64,000 bases of DNA from an uncultured Bacilli bacterium (GCA_963929435.1 CAWVIV010000010.1:942-64941); one strand, 5' to 3'; counted from the stretch's first letter, positions 2,915-35,646 are shown. Program-made: numbers and translations. The notes: generated by a model not told the origin, from the letters alone.

Positions 2915-3252
2915 CTACAGTTTTAAAGATATTTTTATGCCATTTTCTACCTTGCTATCTAGATTTAATAAAACTACACCATTATTAGTTACAACTCCTA
3001 ATACTAGAACTTCACTAGTTACTTCTGAGATGTGAATTGGTTTAAAGTTAAACAACTGCAATTATCTGTTTCCCCTATTAAATCTTCTTCTTTATATAAA
3101 TCTGTAATCTGGGCAGATGACTTTTTTATACCTAAGGGTCCAAAGTCTATTTTCAACTTATAGGCTTTTTTTCTTGCTCCTTTATTTATACTTGCATCTA
3201 TTATAGTTCCTACTCTTATATCTATTTTCTTAAAATCTTCTAATGTTATCAT
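2915..3252 (-). pseudogene. csaA: CsaA-like tRNA-binding (EMAP/OB-fold) domain protein, one frameshift
   Basis: N-terminus [20 protein letters not shown]...KLKIDFG...SSAQIT. After a shift near 3070 the frame continues [27 protein letters not shown], as in CsaA/MetG C-terminal domains. Confidence 0.6.
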
Positions 3253-3267
3253 ATTTCTCCTTTATAT

Positions 3268-3291
3268 TAAAAGCATAGGTTTTACCTATGC
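3268..3291 (-). terminator. Intrinsic terminator after the M23 peptidase gene
   Basis: Stem GCATAGGT / ACCTATGC (3273-3280 / 3284-3291) is followed by a T-run on the minus strand. Confidence 0.6.
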
Positions 3292-3296
3292 TATAA

Positions 3297-4461
3297 TTAT
3301 CTACCATTCCACCAAACTCTTAGTCCTGATGGGAATCCTATATACTGTCTTGGATTAATGGTACTTCTTTGATAAGTTGACCAAGTACAACCTCCTCCAG
3401 CATGCCAATCACAAGTTGTAAGTTCAAGATGAAGATGGGCACCAGTTGAGTTACCAGTATTACCCATTCTTCCGATTAATGTATCTGGTGTTACTGTCTG
3501 GCCTACATTTACATACCAGGGCAGAATAAATGAGCATATGTTGAATAAATATATCTTCCATTAACATTGTGTCTTATTTTTAAAACTAAAGCTCCCGCAT
3601 TATCATAGTATTTTGCAAAAACAACACCACTTGCTATTGGATAAACTTCAATTGTTTTATTTGTATTTGATAAATCTATTCCTAAGTGCCCAGCATTCAT
3701 CCAGTTTTGAGTAACATAACCACTTACCATAGGTCTATAAAATCCTGATGCTGAGGGAACTGAATTTCCATTTACTCTTATTTCACAAGAAGTTATATCT
3801 TCATTTTCTCCACATCCTAATTTTTTATAATAAGTAAGTTGTTTGTTTGCTTCATCTAGTTGTTGTTGTACACTTGGCATTGCCTCTTTTATAGAAGCTG
3901 TTTCAGCATTAATTTTGGATTGCTCTGCTTCTAGCTCAATCTGTTAATTTTTCTAGCTCTTCATTTTTTGTCAGCAAGTTCCTCTTTTCTTTTTTGATTA
4001 TCCTCAATTAACTGTGTAAGTTCATCCATCATTTGATCATTATACTCAGTTAATTGTTCGATAATAGCCATTCGATAAACCATGTCTGTTACATCAGTTG
4101 CTCCAAAGATATATTCTAAATAAGCATTCTCTCCCTCACTAACTTGAAGATATTGAAATAAAGATTTACTTTGCTCACTTTTTTCAGCGATTTCTTCATT
4201 AGATTCTTCTATTTCTTGTTCTAGAACTTGAGTCTCACTTTCTATTTCACTAATTTGATTTTCATAATCAGCTATTTTTTGTTTTATTTCGGCCACTTCA
4301 GCATTATTTGCAGCGATTTGATTATTTTTACTTTCTAAATCTGAGGTAAATTTATTTACCTCTTCTTCTAACTGTTTTAATTGTTTTGGGCATTTGTATT
4401 AACTGGAATTAAGAATACTGTTAATAGTATCAGTAATAATAACCGAACTTAATTTTTTCAT
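3297..4461 (-). pseudogene. Coiled-coil plus M23 (LytM) metallopeptidase, the FtsEX-partner type (PcsB/EnvC-like position), multiply frameshifted
   Basis: Fragments 3961-4296 (coiled coil) and 3509-3880 (HLGIDL) plus an unlisted C-terminus (GAHLHLEL...WWNGR). It sits directly downstream of ftsX. Signal-peptide region at 4400-4461. Confidence 0.7.
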
Positions 4462-4485
4462 TATAGCACCTCCTCATATTCTTTT

Positions 4486-5394
4486 TTATACTTTTAAATA
4501 TTTTCTAACAGCTGAAGCTGAACCTATCATACCAACGATAATACCTATTACTAAGACTATGCCTGATACCATATAAAATAAATGGTATCTGGTTCTATTA
4601 AAGTAATCATCTTGCTATATAAATAACCATCAAAATGATTGTATAAGGCAATATAACCAAAGCACACTATTAATATTGGAATGATTGAGCCAAGAATTCC
4701 TAAAACCATACCTTCTATTATTGAATGGAGTTTTTAATAGTAAAGTTAGATGCTCCTACTAATCTCATAATCGATATTTCTCTTTTTCTTGAGAAGATAG
4801 TTAGTTTAATTGTATTTATAATTAAGAATACTGTTACAAGTATTAAAGCAATAACCATACCATATGAAACATTTTGTGCTGCTTCGAAGGCTTCTATTAA
4901 ATTGTCTACCATTACCTTCTCCATATTTAACAGAACTTACTTTATCAATTTTCTCTATACTTTTGGCTGTATTCGATATTCTTTCAACTACTTTTACTTT
5001 TACTTGAAAAGTATCTTTTAAAGGATTATCTTCATCATCCCAAGTACTCATTACTTCATTAAATATTTCGTTTTCTTTACTCATTTCCTCTTTAACAGCA
5101 GATTTGCTCTGATATGTTAAAGATTCGACATTGCTCATGCTTTCTAACTTGTCCTTTATATCATTTACTTCTTCTTCAGTAGTATCTGTATCTAAAAAAA
5201 ACAACAATTGTTAAATCTTTTTCCATTTCTCTTGTAAAGTTTTGAACATTAAAGGTAACTATTATTGATATTGCTACTATAATTAAGGGTTATAGTAATA
5301 CAAGAGATAGAAGCTAGAGAAAGACTGAAGTTTCTAAAGACGCTTATTAAAGGCATCACGGATGCTTCTTCTTAACATTCTAAAAAAATTTCAT
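4486..5394 (-). pseudogene. ftsX: Cell-division ABC transporter permease FtsX, multiply frameshifted
   Basis: Fragments 4806-5207 and 4718-4924 (REISIMRLVGASNFTIK) plus a manually read N-terminus MKFFRMLRRSIRDAF.. and C-terminus ..SASAVRKYLKV. The start overlaps the ftsE stop (ATGA). Confidence 0.75.
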
Positions 5395-7385: not shown

Positions 7386-8381
7386 ATGTTAAAATGTAAA
7401 ACTTGGGATTTAGGTTATGCCGTTTATAAATGTCCTAATTGTGGTGAAGAAAAAATAGTTCCTCATACCTGTAAATCTCGTCTTTGTTCTTCTTGTGGAA
7501 ACAAATATAATAAACAAAGAGAATCTTCTATCTTTTCTAAACTATTTAGATGTAAACATCGCCATGTTGTTTTTACTATTCCAGATGAATTAAGAGTATA
7601 TTTTAGAGAAGATAGAAAAAGACTTAATTATCTTTTTAAAGCCGCTTCTATTACTGTTAATTCTTGGTTTGAAAACAAGTACAAAAAGAAAGAGCTTATT
7701 CCTGCTTATATTTCTATTCTTCATACTTTTGGCAGAAGTCTTATTTTTAATCCTCATATTCATATGATCTTAATGGATGGTGGTATATCTAATAAATGTA
7801 AAGAATTTGTTAAAGTTGATTACTTTGCTTATCCATCATTTCGTAAACGATTTATGAAAGTACTTTTGGATTTATTAGAAGAAGATATTGGTAAAGATGA
7901 ATTTAGAAAAATTAAAAATAAAATGTATTTTGAACACAAAGATGGTTTCTATGTTTATGCGCCTCCTTCTAAGTTTAAATCTTATATTGATTTAATTAAA
8001 TATGCTTGCAGATATGTCGCACGCCCTGTTATGGCTGAATCTAGAATTATTGATTATGATGGTACCTTTGTTATCTTTTGGTATCAAAGACATAATGATG
8101 ATTTAATCGTTATCGAAAAAGTACATGCTTATGAGTTTATTTCTAGAATCATTATCCATATTCCAGATTATAATTTTAAACAAATTAGATTTTATGGTGC
8201 TTATCATAATTCAACTAAAATAGATATTGAAGTTACAAAAATTATTTCTAAGGAAAAGAAAGAATTCTTTAGTAAACTTACTTCTTGGCGTACTCTTATT
8301 ATAACTAATTTTGAAATAGATCCACTTACTTGTCCTATTTGTAATAATATAATGTTATACTATAATAGTATCTATACTTAA
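7386..8381 (+). CDS. IS91-family transposase (zinc-binding N-domain plus Y2 transposase); true N-terminus 7213-7385 is broken by two frameshifts
   Basis: CPNCGEEKIVPHTCKSRLCSSCG zinc-finger region, HVVFTIPDELR, SILHTFGRSLIFNPHIHMIL, and YACRYVARPV..RIRFYGAYHN. The upstream text ..IFKDWWYKFLETYPK / LNIRDVVFSNVERMLKC lies in shifted frames. Confidence 0.75.
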   Translation: MLKCKTWDLGYAVYKCPNCGEEKIVPHTCKSRLCSSCGNKYNKQRESSIFSKLFRCKHRHVVFTIPDELRVYFREDRKRLNYLFKAASITVNSWFENKYKKKELIPAYISILHTFGRSLIFNPHIHMILMDGGISNKCKEFVKVDYFAYPSFRKRFMKVLLDLLEEDIGKDEFRKIKNKMYFEHKDGFYVYAPPSKFKSYIDLIKYACRYVARPVMAESRIIDYDGTFVIFWYQRHNDDLIVIEKVHAYEFISRIIIHIPDYNFKQIRFYGAYHNSTKIDIEVTKIISKEKKEFFSKLTSWRTLIITNFEIDPLTCPICNNIMLYYNSIYT

Positions 8382-8398
8382 GAAAGGATTATTATAGT

Positions 8399-8629
8399 AT
8401 GAAAAATGAAAACAAAGAAATAGAAAAATTATTAAATAGTGCCAAAAATTATTTTGGTAAAGATGAAAAAATATATATTTTCAAATGTAAGAAATGTGGC
8501 AAGTTAGATCCTGTTCCTGAGTTTATCGTTAACGAACAGATTGGATTTTTAAAATTTATCAAAAAGAAAGACATTCCTAAAATGGAATGTCCTTACTGCG
8601 GTTCTACTATGGAACAAATTAAAATTTAA
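8399..8629 (+). CDS. Small zinc-ribbon protein (CxxC...CxxC), passenger or accessory ORF of the IS91-like element
   Basis: 76-aa ORF with CKKCG and CPYCG pairs. It starts 18 nt after the transposase stop and is followed by a strong terminator. Confidence 0.5.
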   Translation: MKNENKEIEKLLNSAKNYFGKDEKIYIFKCKKCGKLDPVPEFIVNEQIGFLKFIKKKDIPKMECPYCGSTMEQIKI

Positions 8630-10462: not shown

Positions 10463-11559
10463 TTAGTCCTCCTTTTAGACTACTTTCAATAAAATCATCT
10501 ATCTCTCCATCTAAGACTCCTTTGGTATCACTAGTTTCATAACCTGTACGATGGTCTTTAACTAGAGAATAGGGATGTAAAATGTAACTTCTTATTTGAC
10601 TGCCAAAGTCAATGTTTGATTGAATACCTTTTTCTTTAGCAAGTTCTTGTTCTTTTTTTTGTTCTTCTAATACATATAATTTACTTTTTAAGACTTGTAA
10701 AGCAGTCTCTTTATTTTGAATTTGACTTCTTTCATTTTGACAAGTTACAACTATTTTAGTAGGTAGATGGGTAATACGAACAGCACTATCGGTAGTGTTT
10801 ACTCCTTGACCTCCAGCTCCTGTTGAACGATAGACATCTATTTTTAAATCTTTTTCATTTATATCTATTTTAATATCTCTAGATATTTCTGGAGTTACAT
10901 CAATACTTGCAAAGGAAGTATGACGACGATTAGATGAATCAAATGGTGATAATCTAACTAGACGATGAACACCTTTTTCATTTTTTAAATAACCATAAGC
11001 ATATTCTCCTTTTACTTTAAAAGAAACACTCTTTATTCCTGCTTCTTCTCCAGGTTGATAGTCAAGTAATTCTATCTTAAAGTTCTTTTTCTCACAGTAC
11101 CTTGTATACATTCTATAAAGCATATTAGCCCAGTCACATGACTCAGTTCCTCCTGCTCCTGGATGTATTTCAACGATGCAGTTATTTTTATCATATGGTT
11201 TATTAAAGAGTAGATAGATGCTTAAACTCTTTAAATCTTCTTTGATATTTTTATTATCAGCTTCTAGAGTTTCTAATAAATCTTTATCACTTTCTTCATC
11301 TAACATTTCTAGTAATTCTATAGAGTCAAATATCTTTTTCTTTAAATCGATTAACTTAGATGTACTTTCTTTTAGACTCTTTAGTTCATTAATTACTGTT
11401 TCGGCTTTACTGGTATCATTCCAAAAACCTTCTTTAGTTGTCTCTTTTTCTAACTCCTCTTGTTTTTTTAGTTTATTATCGGTGTCAAAGTGACCTCCAT
11501 AAACTTAGTATTTCTTCTTTTTCATTTGTTAATTCTTTTAATAATTCATTCTTATTCAT
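10440..11559 (-). CDS. prfB: Peptide chain release factor 2, expressed through a programmed +1 frameshift
   Basis: Frame-0 ORF MNKNELLKELTNEKEEILSLWRSL stops at TGA (11485-11487). The +1 frame continues DTDNKLKKQ.. into ORF 10440-11306, which contains SPF and GGQ ([17 protein letters not shown]). Confidence 0.9.
11484..11498 (-). promoter_or_regulatory. prfB: RF2 autoregulatory +1 frameshift site (SD-like GGAGG, 3-nt spacer, CTT TGA C)
   Basis: The minus strand reads GGAGG TCA CTT TGA C, the canonical prfB recoding signal. Confidence 0.85.
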
Positions 11560-11721
11560 TCTTACCAACTCTCTTTATTAGTATTATACAAGATATTTAT
11601 TTTTATAACAAAATATTTTTTGTATATTTTTACTAAATTTACATATAGTATTAATGAGGAAGGTTCACTGATAAGTGTGAAGATCCTCATATATATAGAT
11701 TGAGGAGCCTAATTTGGCTCC

Positions 11722-14194: not shown

Positions 14195-14431
14195 GAGTCA
14201 AATATCTTTTTCTTTAAATCGATTAACTTAGATGTACTTTCTTTTAGACTCTTTAGTTCATTAATTACTGTTTCGGCTTTACTGGTATCATTCCAAAAAC
14301 CTTCTTTAGTTGTCTCTTTTTCTAACTCCTCTTGTTTTTTTAGTTTATTATCGGTGTCAAAGTGACCTCCATAAACTTAGTATTTCTTCTTTTTCATTTG
14401 TTAATTCTTTTAATAATTCATTCTTATTCAT
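14195..14431 (-). pseudogene. prfB: Duplicated 5' fragment of prfB (promoter, start codon and frameshift site retained), fused to the IS1634 end
   Basis: Identical to 11323-11559. The recoding site is duplicated at 14356-14370, and the reading frame runs into the IS end (..IFDSGFKHLRNIKT..). Confidence 0.8.
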
Positions 14432-14593
14432 TCTTACCAACTCTCTTTATTAGTATTATACAAGATATTTATTTTTATAACAAAATATTTTTTGTATATT
14501 TTTACTAAATTTACATATAGTATTAATGAGGAAGGTTCACTGATAAGTGTGAAGATCCTCATATATATAGATTGAGGAGCCTAATTTGGCTCC

Positions 14594-34036: not shown

Positions 34037-34246
34037 CTAATCTTTTTTATTAAAACCATATTTCTTATTAAACTTCTCTACTTGTCCTGCTTTAGATGCT
34101 CTTCCTTGTTTTCCTGTATAGAATGGATGACAATTTGAACATACTTCAACATTTATTTCATCTTTATTAGACATTACTTCAAATGTTGCACCACAAGCAC
34201 ATGTTACTTTACATGGTCTATAGTTTGCTGGATTATTTTTTGCCAT
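34037..34246 (-). CDS. rpmE: 50S ribosomal protein L31 (zinc-binding type)
   Basis: MAKNNPANYRPCKVTCACGATFEV...CSNCHPFYTGKQ. The start at ATG 34246 follows an AGGAGAG RBS. Confidence 0.9.
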   Translation of the reverse strand: MAKNNPANYRPCKVTCACGATFEVMSNKDEINVEVCSNCHPFYTGKQGRASKAGQVEKFNKKYGFNKKD

Positions 34247-34320
34247 TTTTCTTCTCTCCTTTCGCCATGATAATTTATTTATCATAGAAATTATCCCCTT
34301 AAGGAACTAATTCGCTACTT

Positions 34321-34349
34321 AATATATCAAATTATTTAAGATTTGACAA
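34321..34349 (-). promoter_or_regulatory. Putative rpmE promoter (TTGTCA - 17 nt - TGaTATATT)
   Basis: Read on the minus strand. It has an extended -10. Confidence 0.4.
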
Positions 34350-34433
34350 GGTTTTTAACAGATTTTCATACCTAAAAATCAAATCTAAAGTAGTATTTAC
34401 GAAAATTCGTAACTAATTTATTACATTTTTATC

Positions 34434-34462
34434 TTGCTATCTAGAAGTCAATATGATACTAT
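34434..34462 (+). promoter_or_regulatory. Putative promoter of the small-peptide (toxin-like) transcript (TTGCTA - 17 nt - TGaTACTAT)
   Basis: Hexamers at 34434-34439 and 34457-34462, with TG at -15/-14. Confidence 0.45.
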
Positions 34463-34491
34463 TAACTTAGGAACATTTGATGTGAGTGTCG

Positions 34492-34516
34492 CCTCCATTC
34501 CATTAAGGAAAGGAGG
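34492..34516 (+). promoter_or_regulatory. Shine-Dalgarno-sequestering hairpin in the leader of the small ORF
   Basis: CCTCCATTCC (34492-34501) pairs 9/10 with GGAAAGGAGG (34507-34516) across a 5-nt loop. The second arm is the RBS of the ATG at 34524. Confidence 0.5.
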
Positions 34517-34523
34517 AAAAGGT

Positions 34524-34619
34524 ATGAAGACAAAGACTTTTATCTTCAAAGTACTGAGGCTCATCCCTTCTATTTTGATTAGCCTTGCCTTCTTGGTACT
34601 AGTTTTAAAAATAGATTAG
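34524..34619 (+). CDS. 31-aa hydrophobic peptide, candidate type I toxin
   Basis: MKTKTFIFKVLRLIPSILISLAFLVLVLKID, with an AAGGAGG RBS 7 nt upstream. It has one predicted TM helix, a basic N-terminus and a short polar tail. Confidence 0.45.
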   Translation: MKTKTFIFKVLRLIPSILISLAFLVLVLKID

Positions 34620-34721
34620 ACACTCTGCATAAGAGTGTCAACTATTCATTAATTATGAGGTGACATTCACTTGCAAAATCGAATGTTCCTCATTTTTTAT
34701 TGTATGTAAATTTCTTTTTAC
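34600..34721 (-). ncRNA. Candidate cis-antisense sRNA (antitoxin) overlapping the 3' end of the small-peptide mRNA; ends approximate
   Basis: It would start about 7 nt downstream of the minus-strand promoter, pass through both hairpins and reach GACACTCTTATGCAGAGTGTC followed by TAATCTATTTTT. Confidence 0.35.
34657..34699 (+). terminator. Intrinsic terminator of the small-peptide transcript
   Basis: GAGGTGACATTC ... GAATGTTCCTC (10 bp with an internal mismatch) is followed by ATTTTTTATT. Confidence 0.6.
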
Positions 34722-34727
34722 ATATAC

Positions 34728-34756
34728 ATCTTATCACATAAGTATCTTTTTAGCAA
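34728..34756 (-). promoter_or_regulatory. Putative antisense promoter (TTGCTA - 17 nt - TGaTAAGAT)
   Basis: Minus-strand hexamers at 34756-34751 and 34733-34728. The architecture matches that of the sense promoter. Confidence 0.4.
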
Positions 34757-34830
34757 GAGTGTTTTTATATTACAAATACTACCTTAAATAATATTAAAAT
34801 ATAGGAACAAAATTATAGTTCCTATATTTA

Positions 34831-35571
34831 TTATTTAAAAGATTTTTGAGTATCAGATTCATAAGAAATAGATTCTTTTAATGATTCTGGTAAAACGGCT
34901 AATCTTTCTTTAATAAGCTTTTCTCTTTCTATTTTTCTTTCCTGCATAGCAGTTTCATATCTTCTTTCTTCTTCTAATGTTTCATCAAAGTTAACACCAT
35001 GAATTACACCCGTTGCTTCATATCTTTCTGCTTCTTCATAAGTTAATCCACAAAAACTAGCAAAGCTTTCATCATCAAGTAATGAATGTTCTCTAGAAGA
35101 TAAAAGTGGTAATTCATTAGGACTTATTGTTCCTTTGCTATTAGTTTCAAGGCTTGTTGATAAGTCACCTGTAGTTAAACTTTCTACGAATGTACCATAA
35201 TGATTAAATTTTACACTCTTATTTAAATATGGAGACACACAAGTTATTGTCATGTCACTTTTTTCTCCATTAATAGCACATAATAACTCTTTGTCTTTAC
35301 GATACATAAGTGAAAATTTATCATTACTATGTGTTTTTGGCAAGTTTAATTTTCTGAAGCTTAATGCAGTTACCATACTAGCTATAGCTTCGTCATGACT
35401 TAACTTACCAAGCTCATAATTTACTCCCTCTTTTATTTGCTTTAAATATTGGCTTAAAAGAAAAAATTCTCTTTCTTTTTCTGATAAGCTTTTGTAATGA
35501 GCTGCAAGCCCCTTACTTTTTAAATCGGCAACTATTTCTTTTGTAAATGTTTCAAAATATCCATTATTCAT
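34831..35571 (-). CDS. Hypothetical protein
   Basis: Uninterrupted ORF with start ATG 35571 after GGGGGA. A terminator hairpin ATAGGAAC/GTTCCTAT lies at about 34801-34826. No family recognised. Confidence 0.55.
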   Translation of the reverse strand: MNNGYFETFTKEIVADLKSKGLAAHYKSLSEKEREFFLLSQYLKQIKEGVNYELGKLSHDEAIASMVTALSFRKLNLPKTHSNDKFSLMYRKDKELLCAINGEKSDMTITCVSPYLNKSVKFNHYGTFVESLTTGDLSTSLETNSKGTISPNELPLLSSREHSLLDDESFASFCGLTYEEAERYEATGVIHGVNFDETLEEERRYETAMQERKIEREKLIKERLAVLPESLKESISYESDTQKSFK

Positions 35572-35646
35572 TTTTAATTCCCCCTTCAATGAATATGAGC
35601 ATATTATATCATTTTTTTATTATTTGTCAAGCTTTCTCAAATTTTC

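Follow-up and report, generated by a model that had tools for sequence, protein, structure and literature searches.

A candidate type I toxin-antitoxin-like module, of a family not described before, in uncultured low-GC gut Bacilli

The 64,000 nucleotides of DNA from an uncultured Bacilli bacterium that were analysed here (the window) carry, between rpmE and the next gene, a compact cassette that is probably a type I toxin-antitoxin-like module on the chromosome, from a family that has not been described before and is found in uncultured gut Bacilli of low GC content. A 31-residue membrane peptide is encoded on a predicted mRNA of about 231 nt, as is characteristic of type I systems, and a convergent antisense RNA is predicted to overlap the 3' end of that mRNA; judged from the sequences, the architecture is closest to that of bsrG/SR4, although the two are not homologous in sequence. 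About 25 cassettes with five peptide classes were found in at least eight genomic contexts in Candidatus Onthousia genomes and gut metagenomes, all of them metagenome assemblies. A module of type I had been proposed from the window sequence alone, and the computational tests able to count against that proposal all came out in its favour; it is supported, and the module is still a candidate. No described system of this kind is known from this group of uncultured Bacilli of the gut.

rpmE (34037-34246) and the next ORF (34831-35589), both on the minus strand, are separated by 584 bp (34247-34830), in agreement with the sequence-only reading, and all five elements described in that reading (a promoter, a leader with a sequestered RBS, a small ORF, a hairpin followed by a terminator, and an opposing promoter) are in place. 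The predicted toxin-mRNA promoter is on the plus strand at 34434-34462, with a -35 box TTGCTA (34434-34439), a 17 nt spacer, the dinucleotide TG (34454-34455) and a -10 box TACTAT (34457-34462). The mRNA of about 231 nt is predicted to extend from 34469 to 34699 on the same strand, its start being placed by inference 7 nt past the -10 box and its end at the T-tract. It begins with the 5' arm of a terminal 5'-3' helix (34469-34490, extendable to about 34495, into the anti-SD) and continues into an RBS-occluding hairpin (34492-34516) formed by the anti-SD CCTCCATTCC (34492-34501) and the SD GGAAAGGAGG (34507-34516). The candidate-toxin ORF of 31 codons, MKTKTFIFKVLRLIPSILISLAFLVLVLKID, is at 34524-34619, with its stop codon TAG at 34617-34619, and a perfect 8 bp hairpin (34619-34639) begins inside the stop codon. 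The toxin-mRNA terminator hairpin with T6 follows at 34657-34699 on the plus strand and includes the two parts of the 3' arm of the terminal helix (34662-34670 and 34678-34690), the loop between them (34671-34677) being bulged out. On the minus strand, the predicted antitoxin promoter is at 34756-34728 (-35 box TTGCTA at 34756-34751, a 17 nt spacer, TG, and -10 box TAAGAT at 34733-34728), and an antisense RNA of about 110-114 nt, its ends inferred from promoter and terminator, would cover 34608-34721.

These two convergent promoters, noted earlier as near-identical, are the sole matches in the 64 kb window to their shared pattern TTGCTA-N14-TGnTAnnAT, for which shuffled sequences give an expectation of 0.04. 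They tie in their fit to consensus (9/13 each) and both are below the threshold of a generic promoter scanner, with 8/12 hexamer positions plus TG against a cut-off of 9/12. No second copy of the cassette was detected in the window by tblastn or blastn.

It is scarcely credible that the region regulates rpmE as a riboswitch, an upstream promoter or an extended leader, or that its motifs were brought together by chance. The antisense promoter is indeed aimed at rpmE and the cassette abuts the rpmE -35 box, but rpmE has a promoter of its own (TTGTCA-17-TATATT with TG, 34349-34321, minus strand) and an L31-Firmicutes leader (RF03156, 34256-34287, minus strand, 36 bits, at least 140 bp from the cassette), and both are downstream of the cassette. 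Sister species in which the cassette is absent retain the rpmE promoter and leader, and homologous cassettes with their own convergent promoter are present at loci unrelated to rpmE. The cassette is thus neither the rpmE leader nor a riboswitch, a match to either having been named beforehand among the findings that would refute the proposal, and Rfam gave no match to the window cassette at E <= 10 and none to the four other cassette classes at E <= 1. A chance constellation is rejected on the expectation of 0.04 for the promoter pair and on the fixed position of the antisense promoter across cassettes.

Relatives of the locus were collected with an exact look-up of the L31 protein, which returned ten metagenomic loci, and with a murA-anchored scan of GTDB representative genomes, which gave 80 loci; the best of these belongs to Candidatus Onthousia excrementipullorum, and its MurA is 99% identical. 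The gap between the lipase gene and rpmE is in a variety of states in these genomes. Class A1, with peptides of the form MKTKTFI[FL]KVL[RK]LIPSILI[SG]LAFLVLVLKID, comprises the window and 11 cassettes in 11 loci; class A2 (MNKKDFLIFSLVIIIFLLLFLLFIVLI) is present in several loci, class A2b (MNKKDCLIFSLVIMLFLQDILLLFAILALK) in L023 and class A3 (MRKIDFLVLALFIVIFLLIALLFVK) in L015, and in L017 an A1 and an A2 cassette adjoin one another in tandem. Decayed forms include an A2 cassette frameshifted by a 1 nt deletion in a T-run (L022), a precise deletion of the ORF with both promoters remaining (L005), a deletion of the toxin side with the antisense promoter region remaining (L025) and a deletion of the whole cassette between short repeats (L018). 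In L014, L024, L027 and L029 the site is empty, and the rpmE -35 box abuts the lipase-side flank. Comparison of A1 with A2 shows nearly identical promoters and proximal parts of the arms, and a central region of about 200 bp that cannot be aligned, a pattern that looks like core swapping by recombination.

Further cassettes are found outside this gap. L062, a MAG of a different genus, contains an A3-like cassette (MHKKDFLILSLIIIIFLLIALLFTFVK) that adjoins murA instead of rpmE, with a convergent extended -10 promoter of its own 28 nt beyond the T-tract; the cassette is split by an IS fragment, so that an apparently intact ORF is separated from the antisense promoter. Among the 48 matches of a metagenome scan with the A3 5'-arm pattern, ten are genuine cassettes of low GC content, which encode peptides of 24-30 aa with the form M-x-K-K-D-[LF]-L-I...K(K). 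The eight compared for context, which exclude the Onthousia-context loci L112 and L133, occupy at least seven contexts, L116 and L118 having the same downstream neighbour. An nhmmer profile of the A3-pattern sequences detects A2 and A2b over their full length (E values of 1e-15 and 1e-9) and also exposed a second, tandem cassette in L123, which is a distant A1 homologue with an antisense promoter of its own. The search for paralogous copies, advised because type I toxins are often multicopy, was thereby answered by the tandems in L017 and L123. On these sequence comparisons, the tandem copies, the empty sites in sister species and the decay of the toxin side suggest behaviour typical of toxin-antitoxin modules.

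The pattern of substitutions indicates that the peptide ORF is under purifying selection. Among 11 pairs dN/dS is 0.10-0.30 and the lowest pN/pS is always in frame 0, and differences at the three codon positions number 30, 13 and 44 (chi-square p = 2.5e-4); a comparison with the distant homologue MKTKTFVIKVLRLIAIILLLSTLLVLAIKK of L123 gives a dN/dS of 0.21. Conservation of the ORF, which had been put forward as a check on the toxin reading, is therefore of the coding kind. Within class A1, 5-7% of sites in the transcribed region vary, as against 30% in the adjoining spacer, and five of the seven ORF changes are at third codon positions, four of the seven being synonymous and three conservative.

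The window peptide has a basic N-terminus and a single membrane-spanning segment with a hydrophobic core at residues 13-28, and its best 17-residue Kyte-Doolittle mean is 2.5 (residues 14-30). All cassette peptides, of 24-31 aa, are basic at the N-terminus, and their hydrophobic core consists of 12-22 uncharged residues (16-22 in every peptide except A2b); their best 17-residue means are 2.5-3.9. The peptide had been described as belonging to no named family, and this description holds: no Pfam or NCBIfam family matches the cassette peptides, a HokA match being weak and not significant (E = 0.2), and an exact-protein look-up and a phmmer search of the 31 aa peptide against 1.84 billion representatives returned nothing. 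Nor was there a match to the 61 aa TTG-extended ORF in a word-index search of a collection of 5.8 billion clusters, or to the peptide strings in a literature search. Scans of viral contigs gave nothing, or only high-GC chance matches, and there is no sign of phage carriage.

A short peptide with a basic N-terminus and an otherwise hydrophobic sequence superficially resembles a signal peptide, and the ORF could be read as encoding a signalling peptide, for example the precursor of an SHP-type pheromone, or a bacteriocin-like one, in either case secreted or processed. We consider this very unlikely, as no Rgg-type regulator, transporter or immunity gene was recognised when the translations of the flanking ORFs were judged by eye, and these ORFs vary between contexts. 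A closed mRNA with a convergent antisense RNA is not known as a feature of pheromone loci.

The candidate toxin mRNA is predicted to be highly structured. The transcript from 34469 to about 34699-34705 has a minimum free energy of -76.9 kcal/mol (z = -7.0), and none of 200 shuffled sequences folds as well. In this fold the SD is closed by CCUCC/GGAGG, with formation of the nine base pairs out of ten that had been claimed for the RBS region, and the 8 bp hairpin at 34619-34639 also forms. The local terminator (34657-34699) has a folding energy of -13.6 kcal/mol (z = -3.65), and the main 5'-3' contact, between 34469-34490 and 34662-34690, amounts to -39.5 kcal/mol, a value that none of 500 shuffles equals. 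The mRNA is closed into a terminal helix, its initial 22-27 nt pairing with both strands of its own terminator hairpin, the loop of which is bulged. The long-range pairing suggested earlier, GAGTGTC with GACACTC, exists as an alternative partner of 34484-34490, but it is not the dominant one. The 5' strand of the post-stop hairpin is a further possible partner for the distal part (about half) of the 5' arm in each class, as read off the sequences: GAGUGUC/GACACUC in A1, GUUGGGUGA/UCACCUAAC in A2 and UUGAGUAC/GUACUCAA in A3.

The same organization recurs when A1, A2, A2b and A3 are folded independently, each fold having the terminal 5'-3' helix and the hairpin after the stop codon, with the SD paired. 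The terminal helix is 26-30 bp long, and the arm duplexes of the different classes have energies of -31 to -40 kcal/mol, with none of 500 shuffles as good. Three classes build this helix from different sequences, and in a cross-class matrix every arm, 5' or 3', pairs best with its cognate. In the A3-type alignment RNAalifold shows little covariation for the distal helix, and these metagenome sequences were selected by a pattern that fixes the arm, which makes covariation within the set uninformative; the covariation argument therefore rests on the comparison between classes.

The arms also constitute an inverted repeat of 26-30 bp in DNA, and with the varied intergenic contexts, the occasional tandems and the presence/absence polymorphism this recalls a MITE-like mobile element, with the arms as terminal inverted repeats and the ORF incidental. 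We regard this as highly improbable. The helix contains 1-5 G.U pairs and the sense strand is stronger by 2-11 kcal/mol in 13 of 13 cassettes, and this points to selection acting on the toxin-sense RNA and not on an inverted repeat of the DNA. In addition, both conserved promoters are outside the repeats and inside the unit that is inserted or deleted, purifying selection on the ORF is specific to its frame, and no target-site duplication was seen beside the arms.

The antisense side is equally constant in its layout. A convergent promoter of the form TTGnnn-17-TGnTAnnnT follows the toxin T-tract at a distance of 28-32 nt in 20 of the 21 cassettes (29 nt in the window), against a background of one such motif per 9570 nt; the spacer is always 17 nt with TG in the 20, and the exception, L006, has CG for TG. 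Spacer sequences are unrelated across genera, whereas position and defining bases are kept, which strengthens the original claim of a convergent antisense promoter. The toxin promoter is likewise kept in Onthousia A1 and A2, and every other cassette has a promoter in the corresponding position. The antisense promoter fits the consensus no worse than the toxin promoter in 13 of 15 cassettes, with means of 10.0 and 8.8 out of 13, respectively.

On the minus strand, the hairpin at 34619-34639 is followed by UAAUCUAUUUUU, and a terminator scan predicts that together they form the intrinsic terminator of the antisense RNA. A post-stop hairpin with a U-run on the antisense strand is present in every class, and outside A1, in the classes whose peptides end in Lys, the U-run is the complement of the terminal Lys codons. 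The predicted antisense RNAs are of 105-120 nt across classes, and that of the window has a fold z-score of -4.9. It would be fully complementary to the toxin 3' UTR, the stop codon and the last three codons, an overlap of about 92 nt; this 3' overlap and the sequestered SD, both of which had been noted in the window, recur in every class. The antisense RNA would open with a small 5' hairpin, from which an A-rich linker leads to a second hairpin and then to the terminator; the second hairpin is the complement of the toxin 3' arm and for that reason resembles the toxin 5' arm.

A plausible scenario is that the minus strand is transcribed into an antisense RNA about 110 nt long, that this RNA matches about 92 nt at the end of the ORF and in the 3' UTR of the toxin mRNA with perfect complementarity, and that RNase III probably cleaves the long duplex formed by the two RNAs, the fate described for bsrG/SR4 and txpA/RatA. 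Such pairing would displace the 5' arm of the mRNA, expose its 5' end and remove the protective closure, and the exposed toxin mRNA would then be degraded by exonucleases acting on the opened ends. The SD hairpin would be a separate and independent brake on translation, and peptide that accumulated would insert into the membrane and be harmful. Partition functions are consistent with this outline. The probability that the SD is unpaired is 0.25 in the window and 0.01-0.41 across 13 cassettes, and masking of the 3' UTR barely changes it (0.01-0.43), whereas the same masking raises the probability that the 5' end is unpaired from 0.03-0.19 to 0.33-0.94. Since SD accessibility is unchanged and the 5' end is freed, decay triggered by the duplex is favoured, and a translational effect of the antisense RNA like that in bsrG is not supported by these models. 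The SD is predicted to be paired with or without the antisense RNA, which is hard to square with synthesis of the peptide.

A more specific form of this proposal is offered tentatively, and we hold it to be possible though doubtful: the antitoxin would act mainly by mimicking the mRNA 5' arm and un-circularising the mRNA through strand displacement, not by blocking translation, and the cores would be alleles exchangeable between promoter 'sockets'. Both the antisense RNA and the 5' arm are complementary to the terminator region, and the antisense RNA would therefore win the displacement. If this is true, swappable cores consisting of a peptide and its matched arms would give orthogonal specificities and permit tandem coexistence without cross-talk. 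An SD-mimic switch, in which GAGG at 34657-34660 competes with the SD for the anti-SD and antisense binding would re-close the SD as reported for SR4, was also considered and set aside, as partition functions show almost no change at the SD; it stays speculation.

The likeness to the bsrG/SR4 and txpA/RatA systems of Firmicutes, drawn originally on the window sequence, is apt. Type I toxins are peptides of 20-60 aa encoded on mRNAs of 150-400 nt, and an antisense RNA overlapping on the 3' side is the Gram-positive layout according to T1TAdb (PMC8594479). In the bsrG mRNA, nucleotides 1-35 are joined to nucleotides 232-262 in helix P1, the SD is within a stem, SR4 is complementary to the 3' end, and of the two promoters that of the antitoxin is reported as the stronger (PMC3834814). 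The cassette shares with bsrG/SR4, and with the related bsrE/SR5 and yonT/SR6, an mRNA for a small hydrophobic peptide and a convergent antisense RNA complementary to its 3' end, here predicted, and it has the 5'-3' helix and the SD in a stem. It differs in that the terminator hairpin itself is absorbed into the terminal helix, while in bsrG SL4 is separate; that the antisense RNA is of about 110 nt, compared to about 180 nt for SR4; that no tightening of the SD is predicted upon antisense binding; and that it is not on a prophage. The peptide gave no BLASTP alignment to the BsrG sequence used. With txpA/RatA of Bacillus subtilis the cassette shares the convergent layout, the overlap of 3' ends and, as the expected mode of action, RNase III-dependent decay (PMC3531473), but TxpA has 59 aa and is unrelated in sequence, and the cassette matches no Rfam antitoxin family.

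The fst/RNAII system (par of pAD1) and SprA1/SprA1as are also Gram-positive; their toxins have about 30 aa, the antisense RNA converges from the 3' side, and the RBS is sequestered intramolecularly (PMC8594479). Their functional pairing, however, is at the 5' translation-initiation region outside the overlap, and duplexes between the antisense RNA and that region of the cassette mRNA are no better than those of shuffled sequences in A1 and A3; contact of this type is not supported, apart from weak support in A2. The peptide, in contrast to the Fst toxin if Pfam holds a family for it, matches no Pfam family. A parallel for the mRNA is found among Gram-negative systems, as the full-length mRNAs of hok/Sok and AapA1/IsoA1 are closed by a 5'-3' long-distance interaction and have alternative or metastable pairings of the 5' segment (PMC6733600, PMC9841398). 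There the antisense RNA acts on the 5' part of an mRNA that has been processed at its 3' end, whereas here the predicted target is the 3' arm.

The same sense/antisense module could also control a peptide that is not toxic, for instance a small membrane protein that regulates or chaperones a complex and whose level is tuned by the cis-antisense RNA. The RNA architecture and the coding signal fit this equally well, the SD is always occluded, and the ORF of L062 persists though separated from its antisense promoter. We nevertheless judge it unlikely, because the patchy distribution, the tandems and the loss of the toxin side are typical of a selfish toxin-antitoxin system and not of a housekeeping membrane factor. 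The swappable alleles and the unrelated contexts, the deletions of the toxin side in which the antisense promoter is kept, and the lack of a conserved partner gene beside the cassette also speak against it, and a type I toxin-antitoxin-like module is the reading that we prefer.

[quoted passage not shown] Their small ORFs are absent from protein databases of billions of sequences, and modules of this sort escape annotation completely. The cassettes also form a natural allelic series, which could be a model for how type I toxin mRNAs stay inert and how antisense specificity evolves; it offers three sequence solutions for one 5'-3' helix, a stretch with the dual use of Lys codons and antisense terminator U-tract, and cores that are swappable between conserved promoters.

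Among other features of the cassettes, we note that L062 retains an apparently intact ORF away from its antisense promoter, which would be hard to reconcile with strong toxicity of the peptide. The local terminator hairpin is poor in A2 and A2b, at about -5 kcal/mol with a z-score near 0. The looser promoter pattern TTG-N17-TGnTAnnAT has seven matches in the 64 kb window, compared to 1.43 expected.

Rearranged copies of the cassette, classed by its peptide (A1, the class of the window, A2, A2b and A3), are found at several related loci, and two of these carry cassettes in tandem. In L017, A1 and A2 cassettes lie side by side (3032-3841), such that two classes are present in tandem, and in L123, where the cassettes occupy a different genomic context, an MKKKDLLI-type cassette is paired with an A1-type cassette (3309-3922). 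Every cassette in both tandems has its own promoter pair.

Other copies are disrupted or decayed. At L062, also in a different context, the loop of the post-stop hairpin, the predicted terminator of the antisense RNA, is interrupted by an IS3-like fragment (about 880 bp; approximately 4210-5100 in locus coordinates). The fragment has the ends TGAACCCC...GGTTCA and encodes a transposase C-terminus on the opposite strand; the candidate toxin ORF is apparently intact and is split by it from the 3' arm and the antisense promoter. In L005 (2548-2849) the ORF has been deleted precisely, leaving ATG AAA GAA ACC GCC TAA with both promoters intact, and in L025 (approximately 8000-8327) the toxin side is gone and the antisense promoter region is retained. 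The entire cassette is missing upstream of position 6840 in L018, in a deletion bounded by ACAT(A)TTTTTAT repeats. In L022 (approximately 8032-8422) one nucleotide is deleted from a T-run; this may be an error of the assembly.

In the window the ORF ends in the A-rich stretch AAAAAUAGAUUAG (34607-34619), which corresponds on the opposite strand to the U-tract of the predicted antisense terminator. Equivalent A-rich ORF ends are present in all classes, and in most other cassettes they consist of AAA/AAG lysine codons followed by the stop codon. This U-tract role may account for the conserved C-terminal lysine residues. In the A2 and A2b cassettes (e.g., L011 8131-8180, and L023) a convincing local terminator hairpin for the toxin mRNA is absent (folding energy about -5 kcal/mol, z close to 0), and the tail consists only of CCUUUUACUAUU; these transcripts may rely on the long-range 5'-3' helix to terminate.

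The cassette directly adjoins the -35 box of the rpmE promoter, TTGTCA-17-TATATT with a TG motif (34349-34321, minus strand), and the junction in the empty-site genomes, which lack the cassette, is exactly at this box. The -35 box of the antisense promoter (TTGCTA) is similar to it. A ribosomal-protein leader of the L31-Firmicutes family (RF03156, 36 bits) is at 34256-34287 on the minus strand.

Among the Onthousia loci, a 252-aa ORF (34831-35589, minus strand) is found only in the window, in L008, where the called gene is 246 aa long, and probably in L013, and the remaining loci lack it; it is thus a variable insertion separating the lipase gene from the cassette. It has no Pfam or PHROG matches and no exact copies in the gene index. 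Close relatives carry variable insertions elsewhere around rpmE: a 178-aa ORF without Pfam matches between rpmE and rpiB (L005/L006, 3275-3812), and, in L010 (3233-4861), a DDE transposase on the downstream side of rpmE.

Elsewhere in the window, the two copies of a direct repeat (11323-11622 and 14195-14494, spaced by 2872 bp) are 100% identical over at least 300 nt; the repeat also surfaced as duplicated tblastn and blastn matches.
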